A DNA stretch of 63,206 nucleotides, counting the filler, from Stramenopiles sp. TOSAG23-6 (Eukaryota): assembly GCA_900128565.1 (NCBI GenBank). It is 9 parts of 9 records of this genome, joined end to end, with 100 filler letters (N's around TTAATTAATTAA, not from the genome) between each part and the next. Parts side by side here need not be neighbours in the genome. Positions count along the whole stretch, not along the records: positions 1 to 11,413 come from LT636262.1; 8 more parts are not named here. One strand, given 5' to 3'. Position 1 is the stretch's first letter. Each line of letters begins with the position of its first letter. The translations under genes and the position numbers were made by a program. Under the pieces are notes generated by a model. The model had not been told where the DNA came from. It made no database searches and saw only the letters and a list, made by a program, of their open reading frames with translations. Shown piece by piece: positions 174-44,860 of this stretch.

Positions 174-314
174 GTACGTTTTCATCTTGTTTTGTCTTTC
201 AAAATTCTAACAAAAAACATTTTTTTTTTTTCCAATTTTCAAGTTTTTTTTTTCATACGAAATTTTGTACCTAACATTTTTTTTTTTTTTTTGAAATATT
301 TTTCCAAGATACAT
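174..314 (+). mobile_element. Introner-like intron copy GT..AT (probably chimeric between two loci)
   Basis: GTACGTTTT start, TTTCATACGAAATTTTGTACCTAAC core, GATACAT end. The flanking exons do not join in frame. Confidence 0.7.
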
Positions 315-3300
315 CTACACTACATAATTCTCAAGAAAAATTAGCAAAACGACAAACAAAAAGTACAAAGCAAATGAACAAAAAAAAATGGGAAAATGTT
401 GATGCTATTGTACCAGTAGTGCATACGGAAGGGAGCAACTTTGGTGACAGTAAAAAACCAAATAATCATTTATTATTGTGCCGAACTTTGGCTGGTTTTA
501 TTATACATCCAAATGTCGGAGCTTGTATTGTCGTTGATTATGATGATGGTACAGAATCTGTTACTGGAACAGATCTGAAGCAATTTATGGAAAACAATGC
601 AGATCAAGAAGGAAAATCTATAGTAGAAGAAAAGTTTTCTTTATCACAAGCATTTCAAAATACAAATGTCAAATTTATGAGTATATGTAAAGACAATAGA
701 AACTTTGAAGATGATGTACATCGTACGGTCGATATAATTTATGATCTTTTACCAGTTGTCAATTCAATGAAAAGGAGCAAACAACCTCTATCTGCATTAC
801 GTGTTGCATTACAATGTGGTGTATGTTTTATTTTTTTTCAAATTCGAGTTTTTTTTTCGTACGAAATTTTGTACCGATGCTTTTTCTGGTGTATCAGGGA
901 ATCCATTAGCTGGTCATGTAGCTCAAATGCTGATTGAACATGGTGGTGCTGCAGTACAAGCAGAAACTGATGAATTGATGGGTGCAGAAAGCTATTTTTT
1001 AAAACGTTGCAAAAACATTGGCACAGCAAAAAAAATGTTGCATTTTATCGAACGTTTTAAACAGCGATTACGAAATCATGGACAAAGTCATGAATCCAAT
1101 CCTTCAGCTGGTAATAATTACCGTGGTCTTTATAATATTGCATTAAAGTCTTTAGGAGCTGGGATGAAAAAAGCACCAGCTGTTAGACTTGATTATGTTG
1201 CAGACTATGGTGAACGACTTACAAATAATGTATTTTTTTTTCAATTTCGAATTTATTTTTTTATAAAAATTTTGTACCTAACAAATCTTAGTTTTTTTTT
1301 TGAAATATTTTTCCAAAATACATGGACGCGGTTTTTTCTTTATGGATTCTCCTGGAAATGATTTGGAGTCTATCGCAGGTCAAGTGGCCACTGGTTGCAA
1401 TTTGATTTTCTTCACTACTGGTAATGGAGCTATTACAAATTTTCCATTTGTTCCCACTGTAAAAATTGTTACAACTACAAATCGTTTCAATGCATTAAAA
1501 AATGATATGGACGTAAATGCTGGGGAGTTTCAAGATGGAACTCCACTTGAAACTTTAGCAGAGAGACTTTTTGATCTTAGTGTGAACGTTTTATTTTTTT
1601 TCAAATTCGAGTTTTTTTTCGTACGAAATTTTGTACCTAACGAAATTTTTTTCAAATGTTTTTCCAAACTACATGAACGTAGCAAGTGGAAAAGTGTTGA
1701 CTAAAGGAGAATTAGCTGGCCATTCACAAGTATCAATTTGGCGAGATTGGTTTGTTTCTGATGACGAAACTATAAATCCTATAAATCCTATAAATCCTAT
1801 AAATCCTATAAATCCTATAAACACTTTTACAAATCCAAGTACATTTCCTGACACCGGTCGTGGTACAAATGCTACTACAACTATAAGTTCTTCCAAAGTG
1901 ATTAATAATAATAGTGATTTATTCAAAAATTACGAATCAAAGTCAATGAAACCTCTTGAAGCTCTTCTTATTAATAAATTTGATACTTTGTGTATAAAAA
2001 ATGATAAAAATAAGGAAATGACGAATGCCACAGATTCTATTGGACTCATCTTACCTACCAGTCTTTGTTCAAGTGAAATTGCTCGGCAAACGGTTTCTCT
2101 TTTAAATGAAAAATTGGAAATTGAAAGAAATGAAAAATTGGGCATTGAGAGAAATGAAAACCATAATTTAAAAAATAATCAAAATATGAAAGAAAACATT
2201 ATTTTATCAGATTATATATCTAGATTTGTAGCTTTACCTCATTCAGAAGGGTGTGGTTCCGCCGGTATTGATATTGATCAAATATATAGTGATATTTTAC
2301 TTGGTTATTTAATAAATCCAATAGTCGCCTATGCAGTTTGTCTTGAACATGGATGTGAGAAACATCACAATAATGAAATGAAATTGTTATTAGAGAAATC
2401 GCAATTATCCCCACATCGATATGGTTGGGCATCAGTACAAGGTGACGGCGGGATAGAAAAAGTTCAATATAAAGTAACGGAGTGGTTCAAATCTGCTGTT
2501 ACAAATACAAATAATTTCAAAAAAAAATCGTTAAGTACAAAATTTCGTACGAAAAATAATACAGTTTCAAAAACGAATCAGAAAAACAAAATGTCAAAGC
2601 TACTTATTGAGAAAAGAACAATAAGTGGTCTTGGTATTGGAATAGTTTCATCTATCAACCGTTTATCCAGTCTGAATATTGCTGTTGCAAATGCACTATG
2701 CGCTGTGATTCACCATTTAATATCTTCCGGGTCATTTGTAGTTATACCTTCAAATTGTTCTCTTTGTCGATCAGCGCCATGTATGTTTTATTTATTTTTT
2801 CAATTTCGAATTTATTTTTCGTACGAAAATTTGTACCTAACAAAAACAAAATTTTTTTTTGAAATATTTTTCCAAAATACATTCTTGGATAAGTTTTCTA
2901 GTTCCGGATTCTTATCCACGGAGTCATCTCTTCGATTTGGACAATCTTTGTATCTACAGTATAACCACAACCCTGCACACAATCAAATTAAACCGGGGAT
3001 TTATATTATGAATTGTGAAACAAATAACTGGAGTGAAATGTATTTTTTTATTTTTTTTCAAATTCGAATTTGTTTTTTCGTACGAAATTTTGTACCTAAC
3101 AAATTTAGGTTTTTTTTTGAAATATTTTTCCAAAATACATGATGACTGCTTTGGGTTCTAGTGGCGTCCAACAAATTATTGCCTATTCAAATATTCATAT
3201 TCCTGCAAATACGTTAATTCCTACAGTTTCAATATCAGGGCCAAACTCAATTTCGTCAAACTCAAATGCTGATATTATTCTCCGCCATTTGCCAAAAGTC

Positions 3301-3450: not shown

Positions 3451-3534
3451 AAAACATGTCAATATATTTCTATAAATATGCTACCTACTACGGTACTACG
3501 ATTATTCAATAATTTGTTTTATTCTTAATGTATT

Positions 3535-4991: not shown

Positions 4992-6041
4992 ATGCCAGAA
5001 CTAAAGTTTACAGTTCCTTCGGATTCAATTCCACCAGTTGAGTTTTATGGTGAAGAGTATCGCATACATACTAGCATGTTGCACAAAAAAAAAAAAGGGT
5101 ACTTAACTCAGCGGTCCATATGTTTTTTAAGCATCTTTGTAACATGTTTGTACTATCTCCCTATAGTGATGTTTATCAAAATCATAGGTATTATATCTGC
5201 TGCTATATTTTGCGGTATTCCTTTAATCCATTTTATCTTTGGTAAGAAGATATCTGCAATCACTGCCAGCATCTTGATACCAAAAGTTATGGGTTCGTTT
5301 GATAGAAAATTCCGTAGTGTAAGAAGCGAACTTCTTAAAGGATTGAGTGGTGAAGTCCTAGACGTTGGTTCGGGCTCTGGAGAATACTTAAAGTATATAT
5401 TTGCATCTGAAAAAGTGGAAAGTGTCATAGCTTTGGAGCCAAATAAGAATCTTCACAAAATTTTAAAAACAAAAATCAAAAATCTTCAAAAAGGTCGTAA
5501 ACTTTCTGCATCTGTTGTGGATGAATTTCTTGATGCTCACTTAAAAAAAGTTGGACCTGAAAAATATGATTGGATTATTTTAGGAAATGTCTTATGTGAA
5601 ATTCCAGATGTTGCCAATGCATTACAAGATTTAGATACTTTATTAAAAAAAAATGGCAGAGTATACTTCTCAGAACATGTCAGAGATCCAGATGGGACTT
5701 TGATGGCTTCAATCCAGGATCTCATTAATCCTTGGTGGAACCTCATATCGGATGGGTGTATATTATATTATCTTTCAAGTTAAAAATTGAATTTTTGAAT
5801 AACGTTTGAATAACTTTTGGCTTTTTTTTTTCTATGAAAAAGCAGACAAAAGTTTTGTTAGTAGGGTTAGTCTTAACATTTTTTTTTTTTTGAAATATGT
5901 TTTCACAATACAAGTAACTGTAATAGAAGAACTTTGGAGCTAATTGAAAAAAACACTTTGTGGAAGATCAAAAATTTTACATTTGCAGAAGGACATTTTT
6001 GGACAAAACGTATGGAAATAGGCATTTGTTACAAACCTTGA
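4992..6041 (+). CDS. METTL7-like SAM-dependent methyltransferase, 2 exons
   Basis: VLDVGSGSG, LEPN, VLCEI, FSEHV and W..ISDGCNCNR after removing 5758-5913; stop TGA at 6039-6041. Confidence 0.8.
5758..5913 (+). mobile_element. Diverged introner-like intron GT..AA (156 nt)
   Basis: Ends TGAAATATGTTTTCACAATACAA. The GT..AA register restores DGC-x-x-NR. Confidence 0.7.
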
Positions 6042-6246
6042 ATCTGTTAGGGTTAGGGTTATTTCAATGTTTGAAATCTAAATCTAATGGGGAAATAAAG
6101 TAAAGTAAAGTAAATACACTTTTATCATATCATACTAAATAATTAGCTCAAGAGCAAAGTTAAGCCCTAACCCTAATCATATCATACTAAATAATTAGCT
6201 CAAGAGCAAAGTTAAATACAATCTATTTTGACAATAACTACAAATT

Positions 6247-7914
6247 TTACAGCATTTCCCATTCACTACTACCTGAAGATGAGCGTTGTTTTGTCTTTTG
6301 TAAGTGTGGAGGTAGTTTCTTTTTGATACCCGAGCTTGCTGTTCTTGCAGTTGCTTCTGCAAGGCCGACTGCCCAAGTACCAGAACCATCCCATGATCTA
6401 TCTCCTTTACAACTTGCCTCTTTCAGTTCAATTGTATCCTCGAGGAAACTCTTCGCCATCTTTGGAGTTGAATGCTCAGAATACATTTCTCTTCTTTTTT
6501 TTGCTGTAGTTACAACAGGCATTGGAAAGTTTTCTGCTACATCATTGAGAGATTTCGTTAATTCATCTAAATCCGATTTATTTCGACAATAAAACCCTAC
6601 AGCCATTGAAGGATCAAGTGCTCGCATATTCATAACTTTTGGTGTACGACAATGAAACGTTGAGAAATGTTGTCGCACTTTTTTTACAGTACGCGACTTT
6701 GTCAAATCCAAAACGTTTTGTGTTGTATGTATTTTGGAAAAATATTTCAAAAAAAAAATCGTTAGGTTGAAAATTTTTATAAAAAAAAAAAATCGAATTT
6801 GAAAAAAAATAAAACATACATGCGGATCGAGAAAAAATAAATTACTATTTTGAGAGCCAAGGAAATATAAGGAATGTCCCGGGCGTCCTCCGATAAATCC
6901 TAGACTTTGTTTTATTTGAAGTAGTCGTAATAAAGAAGTATTGTGAAAAATATTTGTTTTAGTAAAAAAAATCGTTAGGTACAAAATTTCGTATGAAAAA
7001 AATGTTTGTAAAAAATTCATGATAAAAAACGTACAAGGACAATAACCTTCATTTAATCTATTTAGGCCTAAACGGAGGGGAACTAATATTAACGCAGATG
7101 TACCCCATGCAATATCTTTATTTTCATCATATTCGCATTCTTGTGTATTAGCATCCTTCTCCTGAGATTTGGAAGCATTCTTTGATAAAGAAAGTTTTTC
7201 CAAATGATTTTTTATTAGATGAGCAGCACTGCCTCTTTTTCGACATATTTCAACTACTTCATCAGTGTATATCACAGAATCATCAGCAACATACACCCCA
7301 AGAGGACCCTGTCCACCTACACGATGTGTTAACGCACATCGTTGTATAATATGAGAGACTATTGTTGGACCATACCACTGACCAGCCCTTTTACCAAGAT
7401 GATTTCCTTCCTGTACCATTTTATGTATGGAATAAAAACAACGCTGATTAGGGGTATCATTAAACCACGTCAGTATATCATAATATTTTTGGTATTGTCT
7501 AGGATTTCCACGAATGTTACCAACACGCCAATTAGTTCCAAAAAAATGCCGTTGAAAAGCTAGGGCAAGTAGCATTTGCCCCGTACGTAACATGCAACCC
7601 CAACCAGAGTCACTAGTATAGTCTGTGGGTACTATACGAGGAAAATCACGGCGATAGGTGAGCCAAATCAGAGAAGAAAACATATCCTTAAAGTCATTAA
7701 ATTCTTCTTCACTTGTCACAGAAATAGACTTCCCAAGAAAATAAACTTCGCCGATAAACTTATCTCCTGGACCACTCTTGGTCATTCCACCACCTTTTTT
7801 CTTTCTCCAGTGCCAAACATATTCAGGTGTTAGTAATGATCTTGCTGCATTTATTTTCTCTCCTAGCGACATTTGTCCCCTATCTTCTATCCAAAAACGA
7901 ATAAATCTTAGCAT
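6247..7914 (-). CDS. ATG4: Autophagy cysteine protease ATG4 (peptidase C54), 3 exons
   Basis: IWLTYRRDF, SDSGWGCMLRTGQM, GQWYGP, LVPLRLG, GGRPGHSLYF, LDPH|TTQ, LDPSMAVGFYC. The start codon is uncertain. Confidence 0.92.
   Translation of the reverse strand: MLRFIRFWIEDRGQMSLGEKINAARSLLTPEYVWHWRKKKGGGMTKSGPGDKFIGEVYFLGKSISVTSEEEFNDFKDMFSSLIWLTYRRDFPRIVPTDYTSDSGWGCMLRTGQMLLALAFQRHFFGTNWRVGNIRGNPRQYQKYYDILTWFNDTPNQRCFYSIHKMVQEGNHLGKRAGQWYGPTIVSHIIQRCALTHRVGGQGPLGVYVADDSVIYTDEVVEICRKRGSAAHLIKNHLEKLSLSKNASKSQEKDANTQECEYDENKDIAWGTSALILVPLRLGLNRLNEGYCPCTFFIMNFLQTFFSYEILYLTIFFTKTNIFHNTSLLRLLQIKQSLGFIGGRPGHSLYFLGSQNSNLFFLDPHVCFIFFQIRFFFFIKIFNLTIFFLKYFSKIHTTQNVLDLTKSRTVKKVRQHFSTFHCRTPKVMNMRALDPSMAVGFYCRNKSDLDELTKSLNDVAENFPMPVVTTAKKRREMYSEHSTPKMAKSFLEDTIELKEASCKGDRSWDGSGTWAVGLAEATARTASSGIKKKLPPHLQKTKQRSSSGSSEWEML
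6727..6819 (-). mobile_element. Introner-like intron GT..AT (93 nt, in-frame)
   Basis: Splits the ATG4 catalytic LDPH|TTQ motif. Confidence 0.88.
6936..7034 (-). mobile_element. Introner-like intron GT..TT (99 nt, in-frame)
   Basis: GTACGTTTT..CACAATACTT with TT on both sides. Removal gives YCPSLLRLL. Confidence 0.85.
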
Positions 7915-8288
7915 GAATTCGTGAACATTGTCATTATCTAGCTTGAATATCAACTCTAATCACACCAGAAACACTGTCATAAAAACGTTTGCAAAAATTG
8001 TTGGATGGATCTCCTGAATTTTCTCGATATTATTGGCGGATTATTGGCGTTTGATGATACGATCGATGATACCCGGTTTTTCCCGTTCCCGGTAATACCA
8101 TTGTGCTTAAATTGGTAAATTAATAACCTTTGATCAGAGGGAGAATTCTTGAGTGATCGATATTCGAAGTGCAACAATGAATACATTTATTTATAGTATA
8201 AACTAGAAGAATATTAAAGTTATTTTTCATCAAGATGTGACTGACCCAAACAATGGTAAAAAAAGCAGAAGTGGGGGAACCCCTAACC

Positions 8289-8588: not shown

Positions 8589-8591
8589 TTC

Positions 8592-10871: not shown

Positions 10872-11034
10872 TACGAAAGACCTTCTTTTTGTTACTCTTT
10901 GGTTTTGTTCTTCTAATGTTCTTTTTAGGTAGGACTACGCGTAGTACGTTAACTTTGATACCGTCCGGGGGAATAACGGAAAAAAAAATTAGGTACAAAA
11001 TTTTCTACGAAACAATAATTATAAAAAATACTTT

Positions 11035-12626: not shown

Positions 12627-13776
12627 TTAACATTTCCTACCTAAATTTGCCATTCTTGTGTGAAATTTAGCTAATTGGCCAAGACCTGTATATTTTGATT
12701 GAATGTTGTTATTTCCTGAAGTCATCATTAAACGGTCCGCATCTGAACCAAATACTTGACGTACATGTAATTTTTAGAAAATATTGAAAAAAAAAAAACT
12801 TAAATTTGTTAGGTACAAAATTTACTATAAAAAAAAAAAAAAAAAACTCAAAATTGGTAAAAAAATATTCATAACGACGTACAGCTTTATCTACCCCTTT
12901 GAAATATTTTATAGTTTTCATTGATAAATTATCTGTAGAACTCTCAACAGCGACAAATATGCAATTAGAATGTAATTGAAAAACGGAACCCGGGAACATG
13001 TATGAGTGAAAAATATGTTTACATTTTGAAAGATGAGTTGATTTGGTATGAAAAAAAAATTAAATTTGAAATTTAAATTTAAAATTCATGATGAAAAAAT
13101 ACATATGATTAATGTTACCTTCAAGACATCGAACGAGAGCGGCAGATTTCACAGATGAGGAGAATACAACGAGTAATTCACGCGCTGCCATGATTGTTGC
13201 GATTCCCATCGTTAGAGTTCGTTTGGAAACATTTTCTATTTTTATATTGTATCTTTGTGACAATGCGAGTGCAGTATCGCGATTGATTCTTTTTTGACGT
13301 GTAAAAGACGCAAGAGATGAGCCTGGTTCGTTGCGAGCAACATGCCCATCATTCCCTACACCACAAAATAAAAGGTCAATTCCTCCCTTAGATTTAATTG
13401 CTTCTTCAAACCTTTTACACTCGGTATCAAGGTCTGGTGCCTGTCCATCGAGAATAAATACATTTCTGGGATCCATATTTACGTGACGCAAAAACACATT
13501 CCACAAGCTACAATGCGTAGACATACAGAAATCTTTCTCAACACCAACGGCTTCATCTAAATTAAAAGATACACAATTTTCAAATGATAAAGTACCTTCC
13601 TTGTGGAACTTGACCAGATATTTGAATATACCTGCGCAAGAACCATCACCTTTCGGAAAGCCTAATACAAAGTGTTTTTTCGTTTCGGTCGGTTCAAACT
13701 CAATAATTCTTTTTTTTATATACTCCGCTGTCCATAATGACAGTTGATCAGATTCAGCCTTAATTACAACTCTCAT
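12627..13776 (-). CDS. Glucosamine-6-phosphate deaminase-like protein (divergent), 3 exons
   Basis: FNLDE, GGIDL..GVGNDGHVARNEPGSSL, LTMGIATIM, EGNINHM|FPGS. Introns at 12998-13102 and 12765-12870. Confidence 0.85.
12765..12870 (-). mobile_element. Introner-like intron GA..AT (106 nt)
   Basis: Starts GAATATTTT, core TTGTACCTAAC, ends AATTACAT. Removal gives an open 46-codon last exon. Confidence 0.75.
12998..13102 (-). mobile_element. Diverged introner-like intron GT..AT (105 nt)
   Basis: Removal restores INHMFPGS. Confidence 0.8.
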
Positions 13777-15336: not shown

Positions 15337-16718
15337 TTACACAATTTTCTGTCGTTTAGGCAAAGACGAAATATTATGTTGATTATTATTATGATCATCG
15401 CGGCGTTTTAATTTTGAACCATCTTTTTGATTTTCTATGGTCTTCATAGTAGATTTCGTTTGTTCATCTTTGTGTCTGTTAGTACCAATAGTCATATCAC
15501 CGTTGACATCTCCATTTAAATCAATACTGGCGAGTGTATCATCATCAAATTGAGAAAATCCCGAATTTTCGAAATTTTCAAATTCATCTAACTCATTCTC
15601 TTCAATATTATTGACTTGATCATTACTTTTTTGGTTTGGTATACTTTTCAACAGTGTTTCACCTACAACAACTCTAGAGGTAGATTGATTCTGTGTTACT
15701 TTATTATTGATATTATTATCATAATTGTACAAATTTTCTTTGACATTATTATGATTATTCTTATTTCTATTTTCTGTAAATGGTTTTTTGAAAGCAGTAT
15801 TATTCGTTTTTACTATATTTTGTGATTTCGTGTCGTTTCTATTATCATTCATATTGTTGTAGTTGTTACAATTTGTATGATTAACATTTGTATTGTTGTA
15901 GTTTGTATGATTATTATTTGTATTATTGAAATTTGTATTGTTATTGCCTTGACTCTTCTGTCTTGATTGTACATGTATTTTGGAAAAATATTTCAAAAAA
16001 TATTCGTTAGGTACAAAATTTAGTACGAAAAAAAAATAAATTCGAAATTAAAAAAAATAAAACATACCATTTGTCTTTCCTTTTGAATTTCTCTCAATCT
16101 TTGTTTTTTCCGTTCCATTTCGGCATTTTGTTGCTGCTGTTGCAGATTTGAATCACATGAATCTGATGATATTTGAGTAACTTTATATTGACCACGTCTG
16201 AATCCTCTTATGTGTTGCTTATCATATAAGCAATTGCCTAAAATATCACCGAAGAAACGTAGTGCTCTTTTATTAGCATCTGTGACTGCACTCTTTTTAG
16301 CGTTCTGTATCGAATCACCTTTACTTTTCATCCCCTCAGATGTACCATAACCGATGTCCTCATGAAATGTACCGTCTCGTAATTCTACTCTAACAACAGC
16401 TGTGACTCCGACAGAATATCTGCCCCTTTCATCTGGACCGTCTATAAAATCTGGCGTGAGTTCATTTATACTAGAGCTCCAACCATTGTAACCAAAAATT
16501 CTATTCGCAATGGCTATAGAACGCCAGCCTTCTAAATAATGAACTTTGCTCCCCCCAGCGCCCTGTCTTTGGACAGTAAAGTCTGACCCTAGCTTTTGAG
16601 CGAGCTGACGCTGAATTTTATTCTGTTCAATTTTAGTAAACGCTGAGTTTCCAAAAACTGCAGGACGAATATCTGAAGGCTCTTCTGTAGAGCTTGCCGG
16701 TTGTGAAGCAGATGACAT
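15337..16718 (-). CDS. RAD52: DNA repair protein RAD52, 2 exons, Asn-rich tail
   Basis: RQGAGG..YLEG..ANRIFGYNGWS, DGTFHEDIGYG, AKKSAVTDA.KRALRFFG..LGNCLYDK. Confidence 0.93.
15973..16067 (-). mobile_element. Introner-like intron GT..AT (95 nt)
   Basis: Full consensus; joins ORFs 16020-16736 and 15337-15996 in frame. Confidence 0.85.
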
Positions 16719-23014: not shown

Positions 23015-25375
23015 ATGTCGGATAAAGGTGATTCTAGAGTCTGTAACATTGGGGATAAGGTGCTTGGTACATACGTCAACAAAAAATTTTATGACGCCAC
23101 AATTACGGGAATAAATAAGGAAGATAATTCTTTTATACTCACCTGGGATGATGGAGATCCATCACATCGCGTTGTTCGTGCGTCTAAAGTATTCAAAAAT
23201 GGTATCGAATGTCATTTGCCTGGTACAAAAAAAGGAACTGAAAAAAAAAAAGGAACTGAAAAAATTATCGAATCAGCGGTTGTAGGGACAGGGCCCAGTG
23301 CAATACCGCAGTCAGAAATTAGTCTTGGTGCTCTACGTGCTTCAGTTACAAAGTGTAGTCTCATTGGTATTTGTGGGATGAAAGCATTTAGGCTGCAGGA
23401 TGATTGTATTTATGCTGGTTACAAGTGGTATGGCGAAAACGGTGGGGTATGTACGTTTTCATCACGAATTTCAAATTTATTTATGTTTCCTACGAAATTT
23501 TGTACCTAACGATATTTTTTTGAATTTTTCTTTCACAATACATGCTGGCACAGGCGAAAGTTCAAAAATAGAAAACTTAAAAATAAGCCTTTGTCTAAAA
23601 CAAATCCAATATCAAATAAAACGTGCTCTTCTTTGGCTGGTCCAGATTGCTATGCTATCAATGGAGTACCAAGCCCAGGTGAAAAACATTATGAGATGCA
23701 AATGGACAATGAGATAGACAGCAGTTACGAAAGCGATTTGAAGACATTTCACTGGATAAAAGCCAAGTCAACTCAACCAGATGTAGGTGATGTTTTCCTA
23801 CAATTACTCAAACAGCTTCAAAAGAAATTGGATATAGGTGACACGCTCAGTGAGGGAATGGCTGATTTTCTAGATGAATCCTTGTTAGACACTTCAGTCC
23901 AAGGTGCTTTTACGATGATTGGTCAGTTTAATTCTGCGACAAAATCATTTGAATTGAAACCTAAAATGTGGGTGAGTTACCCAAATGATTCATCATATAC
24001 TTATGTTGGAATTGTGGGTCAGCTAACCGATTCCCATATGGAAATAGATGCACGTTTTCAATCTGAAATTGTTTTTGTAGCAAATCTCGAAATCCTAATG
24101 TAACATACCTAACAAATTTCAAATTTATTTTATTTTTCACCATACTTGGTCACATTACCAAAAATGGAGTTCCACTTAAAGGCTGTGATACTTTTGAACT
24201 CGATAAGGTGGAAGAAAACAGAGAAAAAAGAGAAAATCATAAAGAAAAGGAAACAGATCTCCTTTCTGGTTTATGGAATGGATGTACGTTTCCAAATTGA
24301 TTTTTTTACCAATTTCGAATTTATTTGTTTTTCTTAAAAAAATTCTGTACTAACGTTTTTTTACTCAAAGAAATACTTTCCCACCATCCATACTACACGT
24401 GTCAAGGCGTTGACTTGAATTTACTTTTATCAATTAGTGTTGAAAGCAATAATACGGATACAAATGATAAAAATGAAAATATTAGTTTTGTTCGCGCATT
24501 GTTTTCATTTGATGATGACGTACGTTTTCATCGTGAATGTATCACGAATTTCAATTTTTTTATCGTAAAAAAAAATTGCACCTAACATTTTTTTGGACCA
24601 TGTTTGAATTTCTACATTTTTCACTATACAGAAATTAGAAGATGAATACGGTGAACATTATGGTGTTATAGCTGCTAATGATAATGAGAATGATAAAACC
24701 TTTGAGTGGGAAGACTTGAATGACGAGGATTTGAAGGATATTGACGAGGAGGAATTGGGTCAGTATATCAAAACAAAATTGGATTTAAGCGATGAAGAAT
24801 GGGATCAATACGTCAAAGGAAAAAACTTGTTCTACAATTTTGATTTAGATGATCCTTATGAAGAGCTTGATGATGATGATGATGACGGTTTCGATGAATT
24901 TCGTGATTATCTCATTAAAAAATGGGATTTAAAAGATGATGATGAATTGGATGAATATCTCACTAAAAAAATTGTAGGTACAGAAACGAAAGAACAATTC
25001 AAGAAAAGCGTTCATCTTCATTATTTGATTAGTAGTGAGAAAAAAGACCGACATCCTGCAAATATAGATGATGAAGATATAGTACTCTTAGATGGTGAAG
25101 ACATTCTTGATCTTGATACTGATATTCTTGATCTTGATAGTCTAATGGGTTCGATAGAAAACGAAAGCGACAAATACAATGTATTTTATGTTTATTTTGA
25201 TTTAATTTTTTTAAATTTTGTTTTTTTGTACCTAACAAATTTCAAATTTTTGAAATATTTTTTCACAGTACGTGGTATCACAAATGAACGTATCAAAGAA
25301 CTTGTTGCTAGTGCAATAGGAAATGACATTGAAGACTATGAAATCCTTGTGATCGACCTTGATAAGGAAAAGTAA
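23015..25375 (+). CDS. Hypothetical Tudor-like domain protein with acidic C-terminus, 6 exons
   Basis: GDKVLG..FYDATITGI..LTWDDGD. One continuous ORF after removing 23451-23543, 24050-24147, 24284-24391, 24520-24631 and 25181-25273. Confidence 0.7.
23451..23543 (+). mobile_element. Introner-like intron GT..AT (93 nt)
   Basis: Consensus match; contains an in-frame stop. Confidence 0.82.
24050..24147 (+). mobile_element. Introner-like intron GC..TT (98 nt)
   Basis: GCACGTTTT..TACCTAAC..CACCATACTT; removal restores frame. Confidence 0.72.
24284..24391 (+). mobile_element. Introner-like intron GT..AT (108 nt)
   Basis: GTACGTTT..GTACTAAC..CCATCCAT; removal gives WNGYYTCQG. Confidence 0.75.
24520..24631 (+). 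mobile_element. Introner-family intron with canonical GT..AG ends (112 nt)
   Basis: GTACGTTTT..CACCTAAC..CACTATACAG. Confidence 0.8.
25181..25273 (+). mobile_element. Introner-like intron GT..GT (93 nt, in-frame)
   Basis: Ends CACAGTACGT; the internal AG at 25267-25268 would shift the frame. Confidence 0.72.
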
Positions 25376-25722
25376 ACATCGTACCAAAACATTTCAAAAA
25401 ATATTATTAGGTACATAATCTTGTACCAAAAAAAAAAAGATGCTGGTAAATTGATTTATGTCCAAACATTTCTTTTCTATCAAAATGATGGATGACCAAT
25501 AAAATTAAATTGTATTTTTGGTGAGTGTTTGTGAATATGAAAGTATTTTTAAAATNTCAAAAATTAAAAAGATTTTAAACCATACTTTACTATACTATTC
25601 ATACATTTCTTTCAATGATCAATTATATATAATATAAGCTCTCTTCATATTTTACCTATTTGCGCGTGATTTTTTTGTACCGAACGTTTTTTTTCAAAAC
25701 TTTTAAAAATATTTTTTTACAT

Positions 25723-26800: not shown

Positions 26801-28377
26801 CTAATCAGATCTTTGCCCATACGTGCAACATATTTATCATCTTGTGACCATTTAAATGCTGGCCATTGGTCGCGTTCTGGGACATTCTCATACGCAAACG
26901 TGCGAAGTTTTGTACCGGTTTTGACATCCCACACAATAATGGATTATGAAAAAATATTTCAATAAAAAATTCGTTAGGTACAAAATTTCGTACGAAAAAA
27001 AAACTTCGATTTTTTTGTAAAAAAAAAATAAAACAAACATAGCATCTTTCTTATTAGGACCAGTCTGTCCATTCCAAGTGACTAAATACTGTTCACAAGG
27101 TGAAAAATCTATAAATTGAACTCCAGTGTGTGCCAAACTGTATTTATGAGTAAATATGCAAAAGTGATCATAGAATGAGTTTTTTGTTATTTCATATATT
27201 TTGTTGATTGCTTCAATGATGAGAATATGAAAAGAAATTTTTCTTGGATTCTTTTGCTACACAGTTCAAAAAGAAAAAGTATACAAAAATAATATAAAAT
27301 CCAAAAAAATCCAAAAAAATCCAAAAATATAAGATATTGGTGAGACGCTCAGACATCCAAGGAAATAGTGGGGCATTAGCTTACAATCTGGCAGATTGTC
27401 ACTCTTCCCTTCACTGCGAACATGGGTCAGGTTTTGTCTATCACTGCGTTACCATTTATTATCTTTCTTATATGCCTGTCTTTTGTAATAGAATACAACA
27501 AAAAAATGAATCATCGAAACAAATGAATACGAAACATACCGTAAAATCTTTTTAAATTTTGCACCACCCCACAGAGCAACTCCTTGGTGGTGAAAAGTGG
27601 CAAAATATGTTCCATTTGGTGACCAAGCGACATGTATTTTGGAAAAATATTTCAAAAAAAAATCAAAAATTTGTTAGGTACAAAATTTCGTACGAAAAAT
27701 AAATTCGAAATTGAATAAAAAATAAAACGTACATACATTTCGCACCAGTTCTTCCCAAGAGCTTTCTCGCGTTCACCTCCATATGTCAGAGTTGGGGCAC
27801 CAGCAGGTTCGCACCAGCTGATTTCAGTTTCGGCTGCATAGCGAATGACAAATTGATCACGAAAGAACTCATCTGTGAGCCAAGAGCGAAGGTCGACAGA
27901 TTTACGGTCTTTATGCTTTTGCAGCGGAGCATAATCATCTTCAACTGGATCGGCAAAATTCTCGTCCATGTTAAGGAATTTTGTTACCTCCGAAAAGTGG
28001 TTCACCTTGAAGATGTGCTTCTTATCGAGCTTCCAGCCATTTGTATTGGCAACAGCTTTTTTTGCCTGTGACTCAGAAGAAAATTCAACAAGGGCGAATC
28101 CAAACGTCTTTCTTTCTGCTTCAGGTAGAGATTTATCATAAGGAAGGTTAATCATTTCAATCTTGCCAAATTGAGAGTAGATTTTCGTCAAAACTGCTGT
28201 TAACTTTGGCAACTTTTTCATAGGGACTTTTGGGATGTTATCGACAACAATCATAGTTGACTGATTCTCATCAACTTCTTCGAGTTCACCCTCCTCATAT
28301 TCACCATCGGAGAGATATGGAGACATATCCACCATTTCCTCTTCAAGAGCAGCAAATTCAGCACGGAGGTGTTCCAT
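26801..28377 (-). CDS. EIF3B: Translation initiation factor eIF3 subunit b, N-terminal half (3'-truncated)
   Basis: RRM ([25 protein letters not shown]), [47 protein letters not shown]. Ends at a GTAAGT donor at 26800. Confidence 0.92.
26939..27038 (-). mobile_element. Introner-like intron GT..AT (100 nt)
   Basis: Removal gives DAIIVWDV. Confidence 0.87.
27138..27539 (-). other. Long GT-AG intron (402 nt) with family-like termini
   Basis: GTATGTTT..AAATACAG; removal gives ILRLAH. Confidence 0.75.
27632..27732 (-). mobile_element. Introner-like intron GT..AT (101 nt)
   Basis: Removal gives WCEMYVAWSP. Confidence 0.9.
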
Positions 28378-30673: not shown

Positions 30674-33600
30674 TCACAAAGGATCAAAATATTTTGCTAA
30701 AGATTCCACCGACTCCATATTACCATTAGAAGTGCTATTAGTACTAGGAGCAATATTAAAACTAATAGGACTAGAAGAGCTATTAGTACTAGAAGCAATA
30801 TTAGTATTAATAGTACTAGAAGTGCTATTAGTACTAGAAGCAATATTAGTATTAATAGTACTAGAAGCGACATTATTACTNATCTTATTAGTAGATGTTC
30901 CATTATTCATCCATGCAGGCAGCGTTGCTGCTACACCACGACCAGCACCATGTGATACTGAAACGTTTTTCCTACTAGAAGCAGATCCACCAACACCACT
31001 ACCATCAGCATAAACATTTGATGTCACCGAATTAAAATTGTCTCTTTCTCGAGTAGGACTACGGCGATGATAATCTTTTGATATATTGTTGCTGTACTTT
31101 CTATCTTTAGATCTACTACGAGAAGCACCTCTACTTTTATATCTACCTCGATTATCTTCATTATATCTACCTCGATTATCTTCATTATATCTAACTCGAT
31201 TATCTTCATTATATCTACCTCGATTATCTTCATTATAATGGCTTCGGTGCGAATTTTTACAATCTCGACTTGGACTTCTTTCTCTTCGCTCATCTCGAAT
31301 TCTACTTCGACTTCTGCTTCTACTTGTTTCTCTTCGTTGATATTTACGATCTCGACTTCTTTTTCTTCGTTGATATTTACGATCTCGATTTCTTTCTATG
31401 CTACTTCTTTCTCCACTACGACTAGGACTATGATACTGGTTATAGGCATCACGATGTTGAATATGTGTATTACTATTATGCGAGACATTGTCATTACTTT
31501 CAGTACTATTACGCGAGACACTGCGTTTATTACTATTATGCGAAACATTGTCATTACTTTCAGTACTATTATCATCAATAGGACTAAGCGTCGATGAGTC
31601 CAATTCTATCTTTGCATTTTCTTTTAAGAATGCAATTCTGGCGTTTTTAATTGATGTTTCAACCATATGCTGACAAACCTCAAAATTATCACTATTATCG
31701 CTTGTTACAACACACACTTTGTAATCAACTTCAGAACTGAGTTCAATAGTACATGCACAGGTATTTTGAATTCCCATGAACTCAGCTTCAATTCCTGAGC
31801 CTTCAAAATATTTTAAATATTTCTTATCAATTTTGACAGTCCATGAAAAAGATACGTTAGTTGTCGTATCATTATTTGAGGCATCCGAATTTTTATTAAT
31901 ACTACTAGAACTACGACGACGAGCTAGCCTAGGATCATGACCATATGCTTTCGAAGCACACATTGGCTTTCCAATAGTTTTTTTTGTAAATGGGTTTAAT
32001 TTAAGTTCATTATTTGGGCTTTCGGAACTTTTCGGGGAACCATTCATTTCACCATTCATTTCATTATGTAAATTCATCGCTGACAATTTCGCTTTTTCAG
32101 CAGCTATTTGCGATGGCGTCCTATACATCATTTTCGCCTTTTGAATGGCTAATTCCGAGGGTGGTACACTTACTTTAATTCTTTTTTTTTTTGGTATTTT
32201 AAATTTGTTTTTCTTTTTCATCTTCCGTTTCGCCTTTTTTTCCTTTCTCCTTGCTCTCTCTTCTTTTTCAAGTAACTTAGTTTCCTCTAAGATTTTTTTA
32301 TTTTGAAGTTTGATTTTTATTCCATCAATTTCTGATTTAAGTTTCATATTACGAGCCTCTTTTTTTATACTTTCTTCCTTCAGGGGTTGTAAGGAACTTT
32401 CTAGAGATGTCGATGTTGAAATTACATTTTTGATTTTACGATTTTTAGACTTTGTTATACTAGGGTTAGAGTTTCGATTCTTTTGTTTTGGTGACTTTGG
32501 GGGACTTTTTTTTTCTAGTATTCGTATACAATGCCAAGGAACTCGTTGGTCATATGAACGATCACTATAAACAATAGAACAAGTCTCTTTTTCTATATTC
32601 ACAGAAATAACTTTTCCACTAAAATAACCTTGAAAATGTTCCTCAACTTGTTCACGCCAAAACGCTTCTATGTATTTTGGAAAAATATTTCAAAAAAAAA
32701 CCGTTAGGTACAAACTTTCGTATGAAACCAAAAAAAAAATCGAATTTGAAAAAAAATGAAACATACATTTTTTGACCCTTGAAAAATTTTACATTTTTCT
32801 GAGTCTGTTTTGTATTTGTTTTCTGAGTCTGTTTTGTATTTGTTTTCTTAGTCTGTTTTGTGTTTGTTTTCTTAGTCTGTTTTGTGTTTGTTTTCTTAGT
32901 CTGTTTTGTGTTTGGTTTGTTAGTCTGTTTTGTGTAATTCATAACCTTTTTAGCTGCATTAGGTGTATAACTAGAAGTAGAACTATTGCAAGTTGAATGA
33001 ATTTTTGACATCTCTGGTGAAGTTGGCTCACAAACCATATTTTTAATACTATCCATATCCTCTATTATATTTGTATTTTCATCGTCTTCAGTTAGTGTGT
33101 CTTCAGCAGTTAGTGTTTCATCTGTATCATGATGTGTAGATGTAACTGAATGAGTGCTATCAATAACCACATTTTTAATATTCTCCACGATTTTAGGATC
33201 CTCGGAAACTTTAGTTGTCTGCTCTATGACAAACGGTTCTAAATCTACCATCCGAACTGTTGTTTTAGGCATTGTATCCGCGTCAGATTTACACACCACC
33301 ATACTCACCATATTAGGTGAAATCGTTGTACTGTGCGAAACTGAGTTAGTCTGACGAGAGCCGACATCAGCCAAAAGAGGGACAGAGAAATGGTTTACAT
33401 TAACATCAGCATCAGCATTTTTCTCTTCGATTCCAAGATTAATGGCAAGTTCTTCACGGCCATATATAGATCTAATACGGTTTAGTTCCGAAAGCACAGG
33501 AATCGTCAACATTTTTGAATCGAGCTCACCGTGCCTAACTTTACCTTTGGGTAAAGTAGAACTTGAACGTGGAAAGTCATACACAGCATCATCACCATCT

Positions 33601-40342: not shown

Positions 40343-40475
40343 GTATGTTTTATTTTTTTTTATTATTTACCGAAAAAAAAAAAAAAAAAAAAACGAATTT
40401 TTTTTTTTTTTGGTAAAAAAATTTTTTCCCTAAAAATTTTTTTTTTTTTTTTTGAAATATTTTTCCAAAATACAT
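40343..40475 (+). mobile_element. Introner-like intron GT..AT (mirror 39788-39920), probably chimeric
   Basis: Consensus termini; the interior is homopolymer-rich. Confidence 0.7.
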
Positions 40476-41201
40476 GTATATTCAAAACAAAAAGTATATT
40501 ATCATAACTACTATAAAGAGAACGATTTCAAAGAACAATTTCTAGCATCATTGCCAATACTTGATCAGGAAGCTCGAACATTATTAATCAAAGAACATGT
40601 CAAAGCTGCAACAAAAGCATTTGCGTTGGTACTTTCCGGTGGTCATGTATGTTTTTTTTTCAATTTCGNANTTANTTTTTTTTTTTTTATACGAAATTTC
40701 GTACCTAACAAAAAAAATCAAAAAAAAAAAAAATATTTTTTCACAATACATGTTCGCTATCATCGACTTCAAAACATGTTTCGAGAAATAGCAAGTAAAA
40801 AAATTCCATTTCATATTCTGAGCAATAATCCTGCAGTTGAGCATGCAAGCACATTTTATAAAAACATTATCGCCGAATGGAGTCCTACTCAAACTGCTGC
40901 TTCATTGAAACATAAAAACAGAAATGGAAGTAAATTTGATCATATTCTTATATCTGATGATTATAATGGTATTGGTTTTGATAATACTATTCAAAAAGAA
41001 GAACATAAGACTGCTGATGTTGTTGATAGTGCTGATGTTGTTGATAGTGCTGATGTTGTTGATATTGCTGATGTTGGTTATAATACTATTCAAAAAGTGG
41101 AACATAAGGCTGCTGATGTTGTTGGTATTGCTAATGTTAATGTTAGTTTTGCTAAATTTAGTCTTGATCCTTTTGATGGAGTTTCTGCAGATTCACTTTA
41201 G
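40476..41201 (+). CDS. Hypothetical protein 3' exons (mirror 39062-39787)
   Basis: Open after removing 40647-40751; (ADVVDS)n repeats. Confidence 0.5.
40647..40751 (+). mobile_element. Introner-like intron GT..AT (mirror 39512-39616)
   Basis: Full consensus. Confidence 0.8.
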
Positions 41202-42647: not shown

Positions 42648-44860
42648 ATGGCATCAAAAGTCCATCCGTTAGGAATAGACGAAGAGGAAAACGCTGGTGA
42701 AATAAAGCAAGACAAAGGTTTCGTGTATGTTCAAGAAGAAAAAAAAACGCCATTTTGGATCACTTTATTGGAAAAGTGGAGTACTCGACAGAAAGTCAAC
42801 AGTTATGCACTTGAATATGAAAGGTTTAAAGAGAATGATAAAAAGCTTTTTTATACTCTTCGTATTGTTGAGCCTTGGGGATGGGATTTCTTCCATAGTT
42901 TTAAACAAATAGATAAGGATGGAAGTGGTCGTATTGACATTGATGAGTTTCTAAAATATTATGGCTTCAAAAAAACAAAATATATGGAACGAATATTCCA
43001 AGATTTTGATAGAGACAATACTGGCGAATTAGATTATGGTGAGTATGTCACAGCTGTCTGGAACTACTGTAGTTCTAGTAATAAAGATTTGCTCAAATAT
43101 GCTTTTGATATGTACGATGAGGATGGCTCAGGAACACTCGATATGTCTGAATGTGATTCTCTCCTAAGAATGATTTATGGTGAAGAAGCACTTTCATCAG
43201 ATCTCATTAAAATAATTGACGCCATGGACATAGATGGAGATGGTGAAATTGACTTTCCAGAATTTTCTAATTATGCACGTAAAAATCCTGTTATAACTCG
43301 GCCTCTTATAATTGTGCGAACACACTTAATCAATGAGGTCTGTGGTGCTCGTTATTGGCAACAAGTTGCAGAATGGCGCGTACGACAATTTGGTGAATTT
43401 GCTGAAATTGAAAATATAGTAAATTTTGCGACTCAACGTGAAAAAAAATTGGAAGAATTTTTGAAAAGAGACGNAGNANTCAGAGCNAAAAAAAATAGNA
43501 AAAAAANAAAAAAAAGCAGGTTTAGTAGCATCGTATAGACAAATAGTAGAATGCCGTCGAGTTGGAGGACGACCTCTTAGTCGTGCATTACGCTGTTGGG
43601 CTGCATTGGAGCAAATAAACCGTGAAGCAAAACAGGCATCAGCACAGAGGGATGATAAGTTAGCTTCAAAACTTCGTCTAAGTCGTCAAAAGTTTAGAAT
43701 GTATGTTGAAGAAGCTCTCAAAGAATGTGAAAGGAATTGGCTTATTAAGAAAATAGAAATAAAAGACGAAATAATAGATGAAACACACAGAAAAGTGAAT
43801 CTTTATTTACGTTCTGAAGAAGGCGAAGCATGGAAAGAAAAAAAAGCGGATGAAAAAGAAATGTGGGACAGAGCAGCTCAGTATGATCAAGAATATGTGA
43901 TTGAACCCGATAGAAACATTATTATTGAAGAACTTGAAAGTAATTATAGAAAGAAAGCTATTGCAGCTGCTGAGATTGATGCAGAGAAAAAATATGAAGA
44001 AATGAGAGAAATTTGGAAAGGAACAACAAAGGATATACCAAAATTAGTAAAATCAATGACAAACTTGATGATAGATCGTATTGTTGACAAAGATAAAGTC
44101 ATTTATGAGATGATTCTTGGAGCTCCAGCTTTAAGAGGTATCACGGATTCAGATCATTTGGTCTTTGATCATGAAATAAAGCCTGTGAAGGATGTTGTTG
44201 CTGAAGATGAAAGTTTGTTAGAAGAATATGCAAATTACAATTTGTTAGGTACATCCGTTGGTGATTATCATACGGATAATATACTTGATGAGGTGGAAAA
44301 ATATGGTGGAAAACCATATTGTCCAAATTGTAAATTTCAAAGTAAGAAAAAAGCAGCAAAGTTTTGTAAAGAATGTGGTAGTAAATTATTCAAGATGATG
44401 TGGGATCCAGATACACAACTTCCTTTTTATGAATGTGTTTTTTCTGGCCAAATTCAGGTAGACGTTCCAACTGAAGAAGATGTATGTTTTTTTTATACGA
44501 CATTTTGTACCTAAACAAAATTTAGGTTTTTTTTTTGAACATTTCATTCTGTTTTTTTTTTCATTTTATTCCCGTGAACATTATTGGAGAAAATTTCGTA
44601 CTTATTGAATTTAAAATATTACATTGTTTTTAACAATACAGTATGAAAGTGATGCTGCAAGAGCAGCAAAGATTGCAAAGATTCAACGGGAAGCTGAGGA
44701 TTTAGCAAAATATAAGGCATCCAAGAAAGGAAAACGAAGAAAAAAGAAAAAAAAAACATTGAATCAAATCGAAGAAGATGATCAAATCGAAGAAGATGAT
44801 CAAATTGAAGAAGATGATCAAATCGAAACAACAAATATTACTCCTGAAGATGAATCTTAG
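42648..44860 (+). CDS. Four-EF-hand (calcineurin B-like) protein with coiled coil and zinc ribbon
   Basis: DKDGSGRIDIDE, DRDNTGELDYGE, DEDGSGTLDMSE, DIDGDGEIDFPE and CPNC..CKECG. Frame break in the N-rich stretch ~43470-43510; intron 44482-44641. Confidence 0.75.
44482..44641 (+). mobile_element. Introner-family intron with GT..AG ends (160 nt; mirror 35622-35781)
   Basis: GTATGTTTT..TTTTGTACCTAAAC..AACAATACAG. Confidence 0.78.

Follow-up and report, generated by a model that had tools for sequence, protein, structure and literature searches.

How does a gene come to hold introns that begin with GT but end in AT or TT, and what marks such an end for removal? The ATG4 (Peptidase_C54) gene of Stramenopiles sp. 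TOSAG23-6 raises this question, as its coding sequence is interrupted twice by members of one repeat. A sequence-only reading had proposed that this repeat is a MITE with terminal inverted repeats and a 2-bp target-site duplication, and that splicing removes the element together with one copy of the duplication. We examined these proposals in the window, the whole stretch of 63,206 nucleotides composed of nine joined pieces of this genome.

Two ATG4 introns belong to a dispersed family

The ATG4 gene, on the minus strand, has introns at 6727-6819 and 6936-7034, and both belong to one repeated family. Without both of them, the ATG4 product is colinear with human ATG4A (2p82_A) without gaps, and no indel occurs at either junction. 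Removal of the 93-nt intron (c8) leaves a 50/50 aa open frame spanning the joint and yields LDPH-TTQ, colinear with human ATG4A. At the junction of the 99-nt intron (c9), six residues lie between the aligned blocks in both the ATG4 product and human ATG4A. In addition, c9 is skipped exactly in an RNA contig (X8 record 29), in which 6935 and 7035 are joined. The single RNA contig at c8 (X7 record 21, 6583-6733) enters the intron unspliced, and removal of c8 is based on frame and colinearity.

A search with nhmmer (E<0.01) gave 38 matches, or 34 once four mirror duplicates were dropped (Table 1). Both ends of 28 copies lie in the window. After removal of the copy, 27 of the 28 showed at least 33 aa of open frame on each side, and only c1 failed this frame test. 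The dispersed repeat thus sits exactly as introns in unrelated genes, in line with the earlier reading; the hosts include genes for ATG4, a methyltransferase, Rad52, an EF-G-like protein and an altronate-dehydratase-like protein, among others. The standard genetic code fits these host genes. The family consensus is GTAYGT..CTAAC..CANAATAC followed by two more bases, with a length of 91-160 nt, a T-rich body and the branch-like CTAAC motif 28-48 nt before the intron end.

Table 1. Host gene and family copies in the window, with the last two exon bases before each intron and the last two intron bases
Feature	Positions	Strand	Exon end/intron end	Remarks
ATG4 / Peptidase_C54 gene	6247..7959	-		Pfam E 1.4e-84; open frame continues through both introns
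c1	174..314	+	AT/AT	8 aa open on left; probably 5′ UTR intron
c2	819..897	+		truncated after core; frame fits 819-897 (GT..AG), 821-899 and 821-896; excluded from flank statistics
c3	1230..1323	+	AT/AT	
c4	1584..1674	+	GT/AT	intron and exon 2 both start GAACGT
c5	2512..2562	-		internal fragment, model positions 29-82, E 1.3e-8
c6	2781..2882	+	AT/AT	
c7	3040..3140	+	AT/AT	
c35	5758..5913	+	GT/AA	diverged, 156 nt; methyltransferase gene; GTATAT...CACAATAC+AA; mismatch
c8	6727..6819	-	AT/AT	93-nt ATG4 intron; GTATGT...CCAAAATAC+AT
c9	6936..7034	-	TT/TT	99-nt ATG4 intron; GTACGT...CACAATAC+TT; non-AT direct match
c10	10989..11018	-		partial (5′ half plus core); lies between two open frames of the minus strand, in no recognisable coding sequence
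c12	12765..12882	-	CT/AT	GTACGTC common to intron start and exon 2 start
c38	12998..13102	-	AT/AT	diverged core
c13	15973..16067	-	TG/AT	95.6% identical to c6
c14	23451..23543	+	AT/AT	
c15	24284..24391	+	AT/AT	3′ end TCC+AT
c16	24520..24631	+	AC/AG	ends TAC+AG; an alternative end at the earlier TACAT (24613-24617) failed the frame test
c17	25181..25273	+	AT/GT	
c18	25386..25445	-		partial; outside recognisable coding sequence
c19	26939..27038	-	AT/AT	GTTTGT...TCC+AT
c20	27632..27732	-	AT/AT	
c21	32670..32766	-	AT/AT	
c24	40343..40475	+	AT/AT	mirror copy 39788-39920 (-) uncounted
c23	40647..40751	+	AT/AT	mirror copy on other arm of palindromic piece uncounted
c22	44482..44641	+	AT/AG	mirror copy 35622-35781 (-) uncounted
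c26	53527..53620	+	AT/AT	
c27	54352..54446	+	AT/AT	TCC+AT
c30	57662..57762	-	AG/AT	
c31	57869..57994	-	AT/AT	
c32	58205..58324	-	GT/GT	EF-G-like gene; GTACGT...CACAATAC+GT; non-AT direct match
c36	61993..62145	-	AT/AT	TTC+AT
c34	62319..62429	-	TG/AT	3′ end AAT+AT

Old, non-mobile introns might look alike because strong splicing signals and T-rich stretches of low complexity recur in them, and the match of the flanks would then be a by-product of an AT|G consensus at exon junctions. The family is indeed AT-rich and of low complexity, with a median pairwise identity of only 0.73. However, the maximum reaches 0.956 (c13 versus c6, in unrelated genes on different pieces), and 12 copy pairs in unrelated genes are 89-96% identical over about 90 aligned columns, including the non-signal parts CAAATTCGAATTT and TTTCGTACGAAATTTTGTACC. 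Distinct subfamilies can also be told apart (GTATGT..CCAAAATAC and GTACGTTTTCATCATGAA..CACAATAC). Among the 9852 independent seawater metagenome contigs that match the 11.4-kb stretch, the summed depth, which is not a copy number, was 10^3-10^4 in copy-bearing bins against 5-9 in unique bins. All of this speaks against old non-mobile introns, an origin that we regard as very improbable. The members probably share a common origin, judging from their sequences, as an introner-like, mobile-element-derived, short and non-autonomous family.

The 20-nt core pattern found one locus in the metagenome contigs (L001), a genuine further AT/AT copy, and none in the viral contigs; its match in the genome contigs (L002) is a chance match in a coding region of a Bacteroidales MAG. 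A protein search with read-through translations of introns and exon flanks returned only two candidates with shared words, and neither of them scored. No Rfam family reached the gathering score on the window. An open-frame finder of GT..AG introns gave 5836 candidates in 125 clusters, which was too noisy to tell the ends of non-family introns.

RNA contigs fix the splice register

Exact skipping was observed for two copies in the poly-A RNA contigs of one study, c9 (in X8) and c35 (a single contig in each of X6 and X8). For c35, the contigs join 5757 to 5914 with three shared letters (GTA). As the flanks of this copy are unequal (GT and AA), the joint fixes the splice register to a 5′ GT and a cut 2 nt after TAC: the exon GT is kept and AA is removed. 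The RNA of these two copies is therefore cut two bases past the conserved end and not at a usual AG. Together with the ATG4A colinearity, they bear out the proposal that the coding sequence is restored exactly once the element and the two bases after it are taken out. Removal of the remaining 26 two-ended copies is supported by frame continuity alone. The comparison with RNA and DNA contigs covers positions 1-11413, and about six of the nine copies with mismatching flanks are on pieces 2-9. At c4, c12, c13, c17 and c30 the alternative registers differ by one conservative residue and are undecisive at the protein level; at c4, seven registers yield the same product, because intron and exon 2 both start with GAACGT.

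Ciliates cut internal eliminated sequences from their somatic DNA, and elimination of this kind would have the same geometry, with an element and one of the two copies of a 2-nt repeat removed precisely. The joined forms, however, are in poly-A RNA, and one RNA contig retains the start of an intron (c8). Moreover, independent metagenome DNA contigs (X3) cross from exon into intron at 6727-6751 and 11351-11374. The donor-like GTAYGT, the branch-like CTAAC and the fit of the standard genetic code likewise argue against elimination from DNA, to which we attach hardly any probability. We infer that the family copies are removed by the spliceosome.

Introns of the U12 AT-AC type were considered as well. 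When slid by two, an AT/AT copy reads AT...AC, whereas the TT/TT and GT/GT copies read TT..AC and GT..AC. The GT register at joint 5757|5914 and the donor consensus GTAYGT speak against this type.

Flanking dinucleotides suggest a 2-bp duplication

The examples on which a target-site duplication had been proposed (AT/AT at 6727-6819, TT/TT at 6936-7034 and GT/GT at 58205-58324) are all present in the sequence. The proposed frequency of 20 matches among 30 copies became 19 of 28 two-ended copies upon recounting (17 AT/AT, one TT/TT and one GT/GT), and nine copies mismatch. We permuted the 3′ dinucleotides among the 28 copies of this window 50,000 times. Direct matches numbered 19 against a permutation mean of 15.2 (P=0.012). 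Direct matches other than AT numbered 2 against 0.32 expected (P=0.031), a value given by c9 and c32 only. A Fisher test of AT upstream versus AT downstream ([[17,2],[5,4]]) gave P=0.064. The excess over shuffled expectation thus holds within the window, but it is modest and has two informative copies. Inverted matches other than AT numbered 0, so that the relation is direct and not inverted. Since AT is its own reverse complement, the 17 AT/AT copies are uninformative as to duplication or an element-borne AT.

The preferred reading, to which we give about an even chance, is that of an introner-like family whose copies, the two ATG4 introns among them, entered AT|G sites and duplicated 2 bp there. 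The element carries a strong donor (GTAYGT), the internal CTAAC, a T-rich body and the conserved end CANAATAC. It would have inserted into DNA with a preference for ..AT|G.., where 2 bp would have been duplicated, and the downstream copy would have become the last two intron bases. We propose that, owing to this origin, these bases are usually AT but can be TT or GT when the exon ends in TT or GT. The unit removed from RNA runs from the G of GTA through the second base after TAC, and on this reading the 3′ cut would be set by the end motif of the element plus two bases and not by AG. That the last two intron bases may be any dinucleotide, with 3′ cleavage measured from CANAATAC plus two, is a more tentative proposal.

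Alternatively, the mobile unit may be the whole excised intron, GTA...TACAT with its own AT, which would have entered preferred ..AT|GTA.. sites without any duplication. It could have done so by reverse splicing into a transcript, with reverse transcription and recombination as later steps, or by some other site-specific insertion; flank identity would then come from the preferred site and from the AT that the element itself carries. Several observations fit such an origin. The repeat units stop precisely at the splice sites, no further transposon sequence lies outside them, and all 28 two-ended copies are in sense orientation in their host genes. The T-rich body is strand-asymmetric and there is no real terminal inverted repeat. 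Of the 28 copies, 22 have AT as their 3′ dinucleotide; the others have AG, GT, TT or AA, every one a single substitution from AT. The site signal is strong on both sides of the insertion: upstream A in 20/27 and T in 23/27 copies, downstream G in 17/27, then T in 11/27 and A in 14/27. On the other hand, TT/TT and GT/GT would each need two parallel substitutions or a coincidence, for which the permutations gave P 0.031 for at least two cases. Reverse splicing into sense transcripts would also not lead one to expect the fragment that lies antisense at 2512-2562 or the partial copies outside coding sequence. Movement of the whole intron is a serious possibility, though we think it clearly less probable than insertion with a duplication.

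For the preferred duplication, the mismatching copies need an account. Among the six copies with a non-AT 3′ dinucleotide, four mismatch the exon end (c35 GT/AA, c16 AC/AG, c17 AT/GT and c22 AT/AG), and in five further copies a non-AT exon end meets an AT intron end. The mismatching copies include c13 and c4, two of the youngest-looking ones. Nine mismatches among 28 copies would be about the rate expected from roughly 10% sequence divergence per site over four positions. Exon 2 starts with G in 18/28, GT in 10/28 and GTA in 6/28 copies, against backgrounds of 0.18, 0.05 and 0.013 (background from 27 copies), and c4 and c12 have 6-7 nt in common between intron start and exon 2 start. This GTA-like site signal is unexplained by a 2-bp duplication. 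Longer duplications of 5 bp (ATGTA) or 3 bp (ATG) were rejected, as G starts only 18 and GTA only 6 of the 28 second exons. The start of exon 2 is itself under coding constraint, a caveat on this rejection. The footprint in the flanks is real and suggests a 2-bp duplication at AT|G sites, weakly supported within the window and unproven.

The ends do not form a terminal inverted repeat

Conservation at the ends is high (+1 to +3: G 27/27, T 26/27, A 26/27; −5 to −3: T 26/27, A 23/27, C 26/27). The proposed terminal inverted repeat nevertheless shrinks to GTA/TAC, or ATGTA/TACAT with the flanks. Beyond these bases the ends are not inverted repeats, since both are T-rich on the same strand, and position 4 of the GTAC subfamily is non-complementary. 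The MITE label could not be kept either: the inverted ends measure 3 nt (5 with flanks) against about 10 bp or more required, and there is no covariation.

Known transposon types did not fit. The Tc1/mariner superfamily duplicates TA. A MITE of this type was rejected, because the repeated dinucleotide in the register fixed by RNA is AT. Helitrons insert between A and T without duplication and have characteristic termini and a 3′ subterminal hairpin. A Helitron-like element would here start with TG and end with CA, and it would not predict the covariation of the exon and intron −2 positions in c9 and c32. We know of no transposon superfamily that makes an AT-specific 2-bp duplication.

The flank relation could also be a splicing constraint, kept by selection, if one component reads both dinucleotides or if TACAT pairs with AT|GTA. 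ATGTA and TACAT are reverse complements, and the minimum-energy fold of two of the five folded copies contains a 4-bp end helix (GUAU/AUAC). However, the fold z-scores of these five of the 28 copies were +0.72, −0.46, −0.55, −1.59 and −2.34, and three of the five were no better than shuffles. Flank pairing including G-U showed no excess in permutations (19 versus 18.2, P=0.34), and paired cases other than AT/AT were below expectation (3 versus 4.2). In the five copies whose 3′ end has TCC, TTC or AAT where TAC is usual, the 5′ end shows no compensatory change. A flank match is also unnecessary for splicing, as nine of 28 copies mismatch, including c35, whose removal is proven by RNA. We therefore consider a splicing constraint improbable; the nine mismatching copies suggest that it does not matter for splicing which two bases the exon ends in.

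Mobility within the window

The sequence-only reading had called for a search for an autonomous partner of the family, and the window did not provide one: a Pfam scan of 58 of its 78 ORFs of at least 110 aa gave no domain of a transposase, integrase or reverse transcriptase. As regards transposase, this result also fits movement of the whole intron. No empty allele was found among the 15 joints listed of 217 (positions 1-11413). When the halves of the dehydratase-like gene were compared in a search for an empty site, only intron-encoded segments aligned. The fragment c5 is antisense to the altronate/galactarate-dehydratase-like gene, which is on the plus strand, and falls inside its open frame. 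This fragment and the two partial copies outside coding sequence fit spread at the DNA level, and the family would accordingly have moved by DNA-level transposition.

Discussion

The family resembles several described systems. Introners of Micromonas pusilla and Aureococcus anophagefferens have GT/GC-AG ends, a 3-nt duplication and adjoining clear TIRs (PMC11282704, PMC7789003). Like them, the family consists of short non-autonomous repeats that form introns in many unrelated genes. In those introners a short target duplication overlaps the junction of exon and intron, as a candidate duplication does here; one splice site is borne by the element and the other is taken from the duplication, as it would be here. 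Unlike them, it has a 3′ AT in 22 of 28 copies, a candidate duplication of 2 nt and inverted ends of only GTA/TAC.

The introners of Amoebophrya, according to Farhat et al. 2021 (PMC7789003), have inverted repeats of 8-20 nt, hairpins that join the exon ends, direct repeats of 3-5 nt and very variable splice motifs, and U1 is described as undetectable. Both families consist of repeated non-canonical introns with boundary-overlapping direct repeats (candidate ones here) in a marine protist host, and no transposase is associated with either, in our case within the ORFs scanned. Donor and branch motifs, however, look conventional here, and no stable end pairing is predicted in the five copies folded. 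In the tunicate Fritillaria borealis, non-canonical introns end mostly in AG-AC or AG-AT (PMC11282704, PMC13326754). These are thought to be MITE-derived, the duplicated target forms the 3′ splice site and the spliceosome is tolerant, which would be the likeness to our case; altered readers of the 3′ site are reported for Fritillaria (PMC13326754). In this animal the 5′ end is non-GT, whereas our family keeps a conserved 5′ GTAYGT and only its 3′ end is unusual. Introns of euglenids and hemistasiid diplonemids are joined at their ends by base pairing and lack GT, and a MITE origin was proposed (PMC11282704, PMC12621601); there too, TSD-like junction repeats make the boundaries ambiguous. An intron of the euglenid or Amoebophrya type was rejected for our family, given a helix of at most 4 bp in the five folded copies, in place of extended end pairing, and no excess of flank pairing. 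In the literature searched, supplements apart, we found no description of GT-AT introners of this type.

Bursts of intron gain are at present best explained by introns that transposons make. To our knowledge, the known introner families bring or borrow standard GT-AG signals or depend on hairpins. The present family has an ordinary-looking donor and branch, yet its 3′ end, which lies two bases beyond a conserved TAC, reads AT, TT, GT, AA or AG. Genes that bear it will be read through or wrongly split by gene finders that insist on AG; for ATG4, reading through both introns would add 64 false residues. Should these two bases stem from a target duplication, the 3′ splice site in this organism would be chosen by motif and distance and not by AG, which would touch an old question, namely how the site of the second splicing step is located. 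Removal of such introns would then be the RNA-level equivalent of scarless transposon excision, and the spliceosome, or an added factor, would follow a motif-plus-ruler rule at the 3′ end that co-evolved with a mobile intron.

Family copies in the window

The window was searched with a 12-nt core and with an HMM built from 15 copies (cut-off E<0.01). In total, we found 38 matches to the family of introner-like introns (GTAYGT..CTAAC..TAC plus two more bases). Four of them were mirror duplicates arising from piece 34459-45804, which over its 11,346 nt is a perfect reverse-complement palindrome (0 mismatches), and were dropped, leaving 34. Probably a chimera of amplification or assembly, this piece is centred on a T25/A25 run lying in a family copy (about 40131), and its three introns were entered once in the counts. 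All nine pieces are AT-rich eukaryote genome sequence (GC about 0.28-0.39), separated by linkers of the form N44-TTAATTAATTAA-N44. An exact 282-nt tandem duplication (59666-60229) adjoining an N run (59426-59652) may be an assembly artefact.

Both ends could be fixed for 28 copies of 91-160 nt; TCC, TTC or AAT replaces TAC in five copies. Upon excision from the G of GTA through the second base past TAC, 27 of the 28 have an open frame of at least 33 aa on both sides; the one that does not, 174-314, probably interrupts a 5′ UTR. Scanning the window by motif and frame gave no extra two-ended copy except one mirror duplicate. The host genes are unrelated (ATG4, methyltransferase, Rad52, EF-G-like protein, RRM protein and others), and a two-module altronate/galactarate-dehydratase-like gene holds six copies. 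Pairwise identity has a median of 0.73 and reaches 0.89-0.956 in twelve pairs, one of which (2781-2882 and 15973-16067) lies on different pieces; two subfamilies are discernible. The close similarity, reaching into parts that are not splicing signals, indicates common descent of the copies; the family has spread.

The copy at 819-897 (+) has the family 5′ half and core and has lost the 3′ motif. Its frame is recovered with GT..AG (819-897) as well as with two further registers, and it is possibly a family intron switched to the standard AG. In 24520-24631 (+), TACAT lies 14 nt ahead of the real end TAC+AG (24613-24631); the frame is kept at the later site only, which means that some TAC+2 sites go unused. 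Telomere-like TTAGGG repeats (11600-11645) were found within a family copy truncated where piece 2 begins (gttttagggttagggttagt), and a related GTAGGGTTAG (5845-5870) stands in place of the core of copy 5758-5913. The metagenome contig L001 carries one more AT/AT copy; 70 nt downstream of it, an ordinary-looking AG|GTAAGT donor-like site (L001:380-400, −) hints at standard introns alongside those of the family.

Excision of the introns

The ATG4 cysteine protease gene (6247-7959, −; Peptidase_C54, E 1.4e-84) has a reading frame that is uninterrupted across both of its insertions. Its unspliced translation aligns with human ATG4A (2p82_A) in three blocks. Between blocks 1 and 2 the gap is 39 residues, compared to 6 in the human protein; subtraction of the 33 intron-encoded residues leaves 6 as well. 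At the second intron, both proteins read LDPH and then TTQ when the 31 intron-encoded residues are excluded. Excising exactly 99 + 93 bases therefore restores the protein with no indel.

Table. Introns of the ATG4 gene and family copies with mismatching flanks (last two exon bases/last two intron bases)
Feature	Position	Strand	Length and ends	Flanks
ATG4 intron	6727-6819	-	93 nt, GTATGT...CCAAAATAC-AT	
ATG4 intron	6936-7034	-	99 nt, GTACGT...CACAATAC-TT	
c4	1584-1674			GT/AT
c35	5758-5913			GT/AA
c12	12765-12882			CT/AT
c13	15973-16067			TG/AT
c16	24520-24631	+		AC/AG
c17	25181-25273			AT/GT
c22	44482-44641			AT/AG
c30	57662-57762			AG/AT
c34	62319-62429			TG/AT

RNA and DNA contigs were compared over positions 1-11413. 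In one poly-A metatranscriptome contig (X8 record 29), 6935 is directly followed by 7035, and the TT/TT copy is skipped exactly. In X6 and X8, both sampled in one study, contigs join 5757 to 5914 and skip the diverged 156-nt copy in the methyltransferase gene; GT precedes this copy, and its final two bases are AA. This joint (three shared letters, GTA) retains the exon GT and discards AA, which settles the register of this copy: the intron begins with GT, and its end falls two bases past TAC, whichever bases these are. An AT-AC register is excluded for this copy. Among the 15 of 217 joints listed there was no spliced contig for 6727-6819 and no empty allele. In RNA of another study, contig X7 record 21 passes without splicing from the exon into 6727-6733. 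Exon-to-intron crossings are also found in contigs of an independent DNA metagenome (X3; 6187-6751 and 10944-11374), so the introns are present in DNA and missing from at least some RNA. The sequence-only reading of a mobile-element-like intron family, excised together with the two bases past its end, is borne out.

Flanking dinucleotides and insertion sites

The two bases ahead of GTA were compared to the two past TAC in the 28 copies. They match in 19, namely 17 AT/AT copies, TT/TT (6936-7034) and GT/GT (58205-58324). When the 3′ dinucleotides were permuted among copies, a mean of 15.2 matches was obtained (P=0.012), and for non-AT matches a mean of 0.32 against the two observed (P=0.031). 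A Fisher test of AT versus non-AT on the two sides gave P=0.064, and control offsets gave 1 and 2 matches of 27. The flank match described earlier is thus real and slightly above the shuffled expectation in these copies.

Since AT is its own reverse complement, AT/AT copies look the same under a direct repeat, under inverted ends that extend to ATGTA/TACAT and under RNA pairing; the non-AT copies do discriminate. Non-AT inverted matches were absent (0.18 expected), and pairing including G-U showed no excess (19 versus 18.2; outside AT/AT, 3 versus 4.2). The flank relation is therefore direct rather than inverted, as target duplication predicts, the evidence being the TT/TT and GT/GT copies. 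These non-AT direct matches suggest the proposed 2-bp target duplication; nine of 28 copies mismatch, and the duplication is plausible but unproven. A longer duplication, ATG or ATGTA, disagrees with the sequences: most copies are without it, although in a coding exon selection should have retained it.

Alternatively, the whole intron, its own AT included, may insert at junction-like sites. The main support for whole-intron insertion comes from the start of exon 2, which is G in 18/28, GT in 10/28 and GTA in 6/28 copies, against a flanking-exon background of 0.18, 0.051 and 0.013 (P=3e-7, 5e-6 and 1e-6, respectively; 27 copies). Because of this excess, the empty site would read ..AT|G(T)(A).., resembling the element's own 5′ junction. 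In 1584-1674 (GAACGT) and 12765-12882 (GTACGTC), 6-7 nt at the start of the intron recur at the start of exon 2, so that several splice registers yield the same product.

Intron ends and mode of spread

GTA (+1 to +3) and TAC (−5 to −3) are almost invariant across copies. Position +4 is T in 16/27 and C in 11/27 copies, whereas the position that would have to pair with it carries A in 24/27, and no compensating 5′ change was found in the five copies with TCC, TTC or AAT. Inward of the ends, both sides are T-rich on the same strand. The five copies folded as RNA gave z-scores of +0.72, −0.46, −0.55, −1.59 and −2.34, with a 4-bp end helix in two of them. The ends do not form a MITE-type terminal inverted repeat, and the earlier view, which took them for an inverted repeat of transposon grade, did not hold. 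A conserved donor together with a conserved 3′ motif explains the GTA/TAC ends equally well.

An internal family fragment lies antisense at 2512-2562 (−; nhmmer E 1.3e-8), within the + strand ORF 1586-3139 of the dehydratase-like gene. The fragment keeps the frame and has no stop, and is therefore translated unless some unrecognised splicing intervenes. Partial copies were also found beyond recognisable coding sequence (10989-11018 and 25386-25445). Such antisense and noncoding copies are more in keeping with spread at the DNA level than with reverse splicing, though all of them are fragments. Of the 78 ORFs of at least 110 aa, the 58 scanned contained no transposase, integrase or reverse-transcriptase domain; the remaining 20 were antisense overlaps or mirror duplicates. 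The transposase-encoding partner that the sequence-only reading proposed to look for was not recovered in these ORFs, and a stretch of 63 kb is not enough to exclude one.

Comparison with known introners

The introners of Micromonas and Aureococcus are described likewise as short non-autonomous elements with a target duplication overlapping the splice site, but they have GT/GC-AG borders, a 3-nt duplication and real terminal inverted repeats (PMC11282704, PMC7789003). Non-canonical introns of Amoebophrya, euglenids and hemistasiids are described as relying on long end pairing (PMC7789003, PMC11282704, PMC12621601), which was tested in our family and not found. Fritillaria introns similarly take their 3′ site from the duplicated target, but are without GT (PMC11282704). 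In large introner surveys, families with unfamiliar splice sites were inspected by hand and the accepted 3′ ends were AG and AC (PMC12130899), so a GT-AT family could escape them. A full-text search, supplements being outside its scope, found no description of such a family, and the accessible text of the stramenopile single-cell paper (PMC5778133) makes no mention of splice sites.

Length is divisible by 3 in 14 of the 28 copies (9.3 expected), and six of these 14, both ATG4 introns included, are stop-free in the host frame. If retained, these six would add residues to the protein instead of truncating it. The dehydratase-like gene (275-3450, +) contains two modules (Pfam GD_AH_second twice, GD_AH_C) and carries its six copies in 3.3 kb. 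The altronate/galactarate-dehydratase family is probably mainly bacterial; if so, all introns of this gene would be gains after its transfer.
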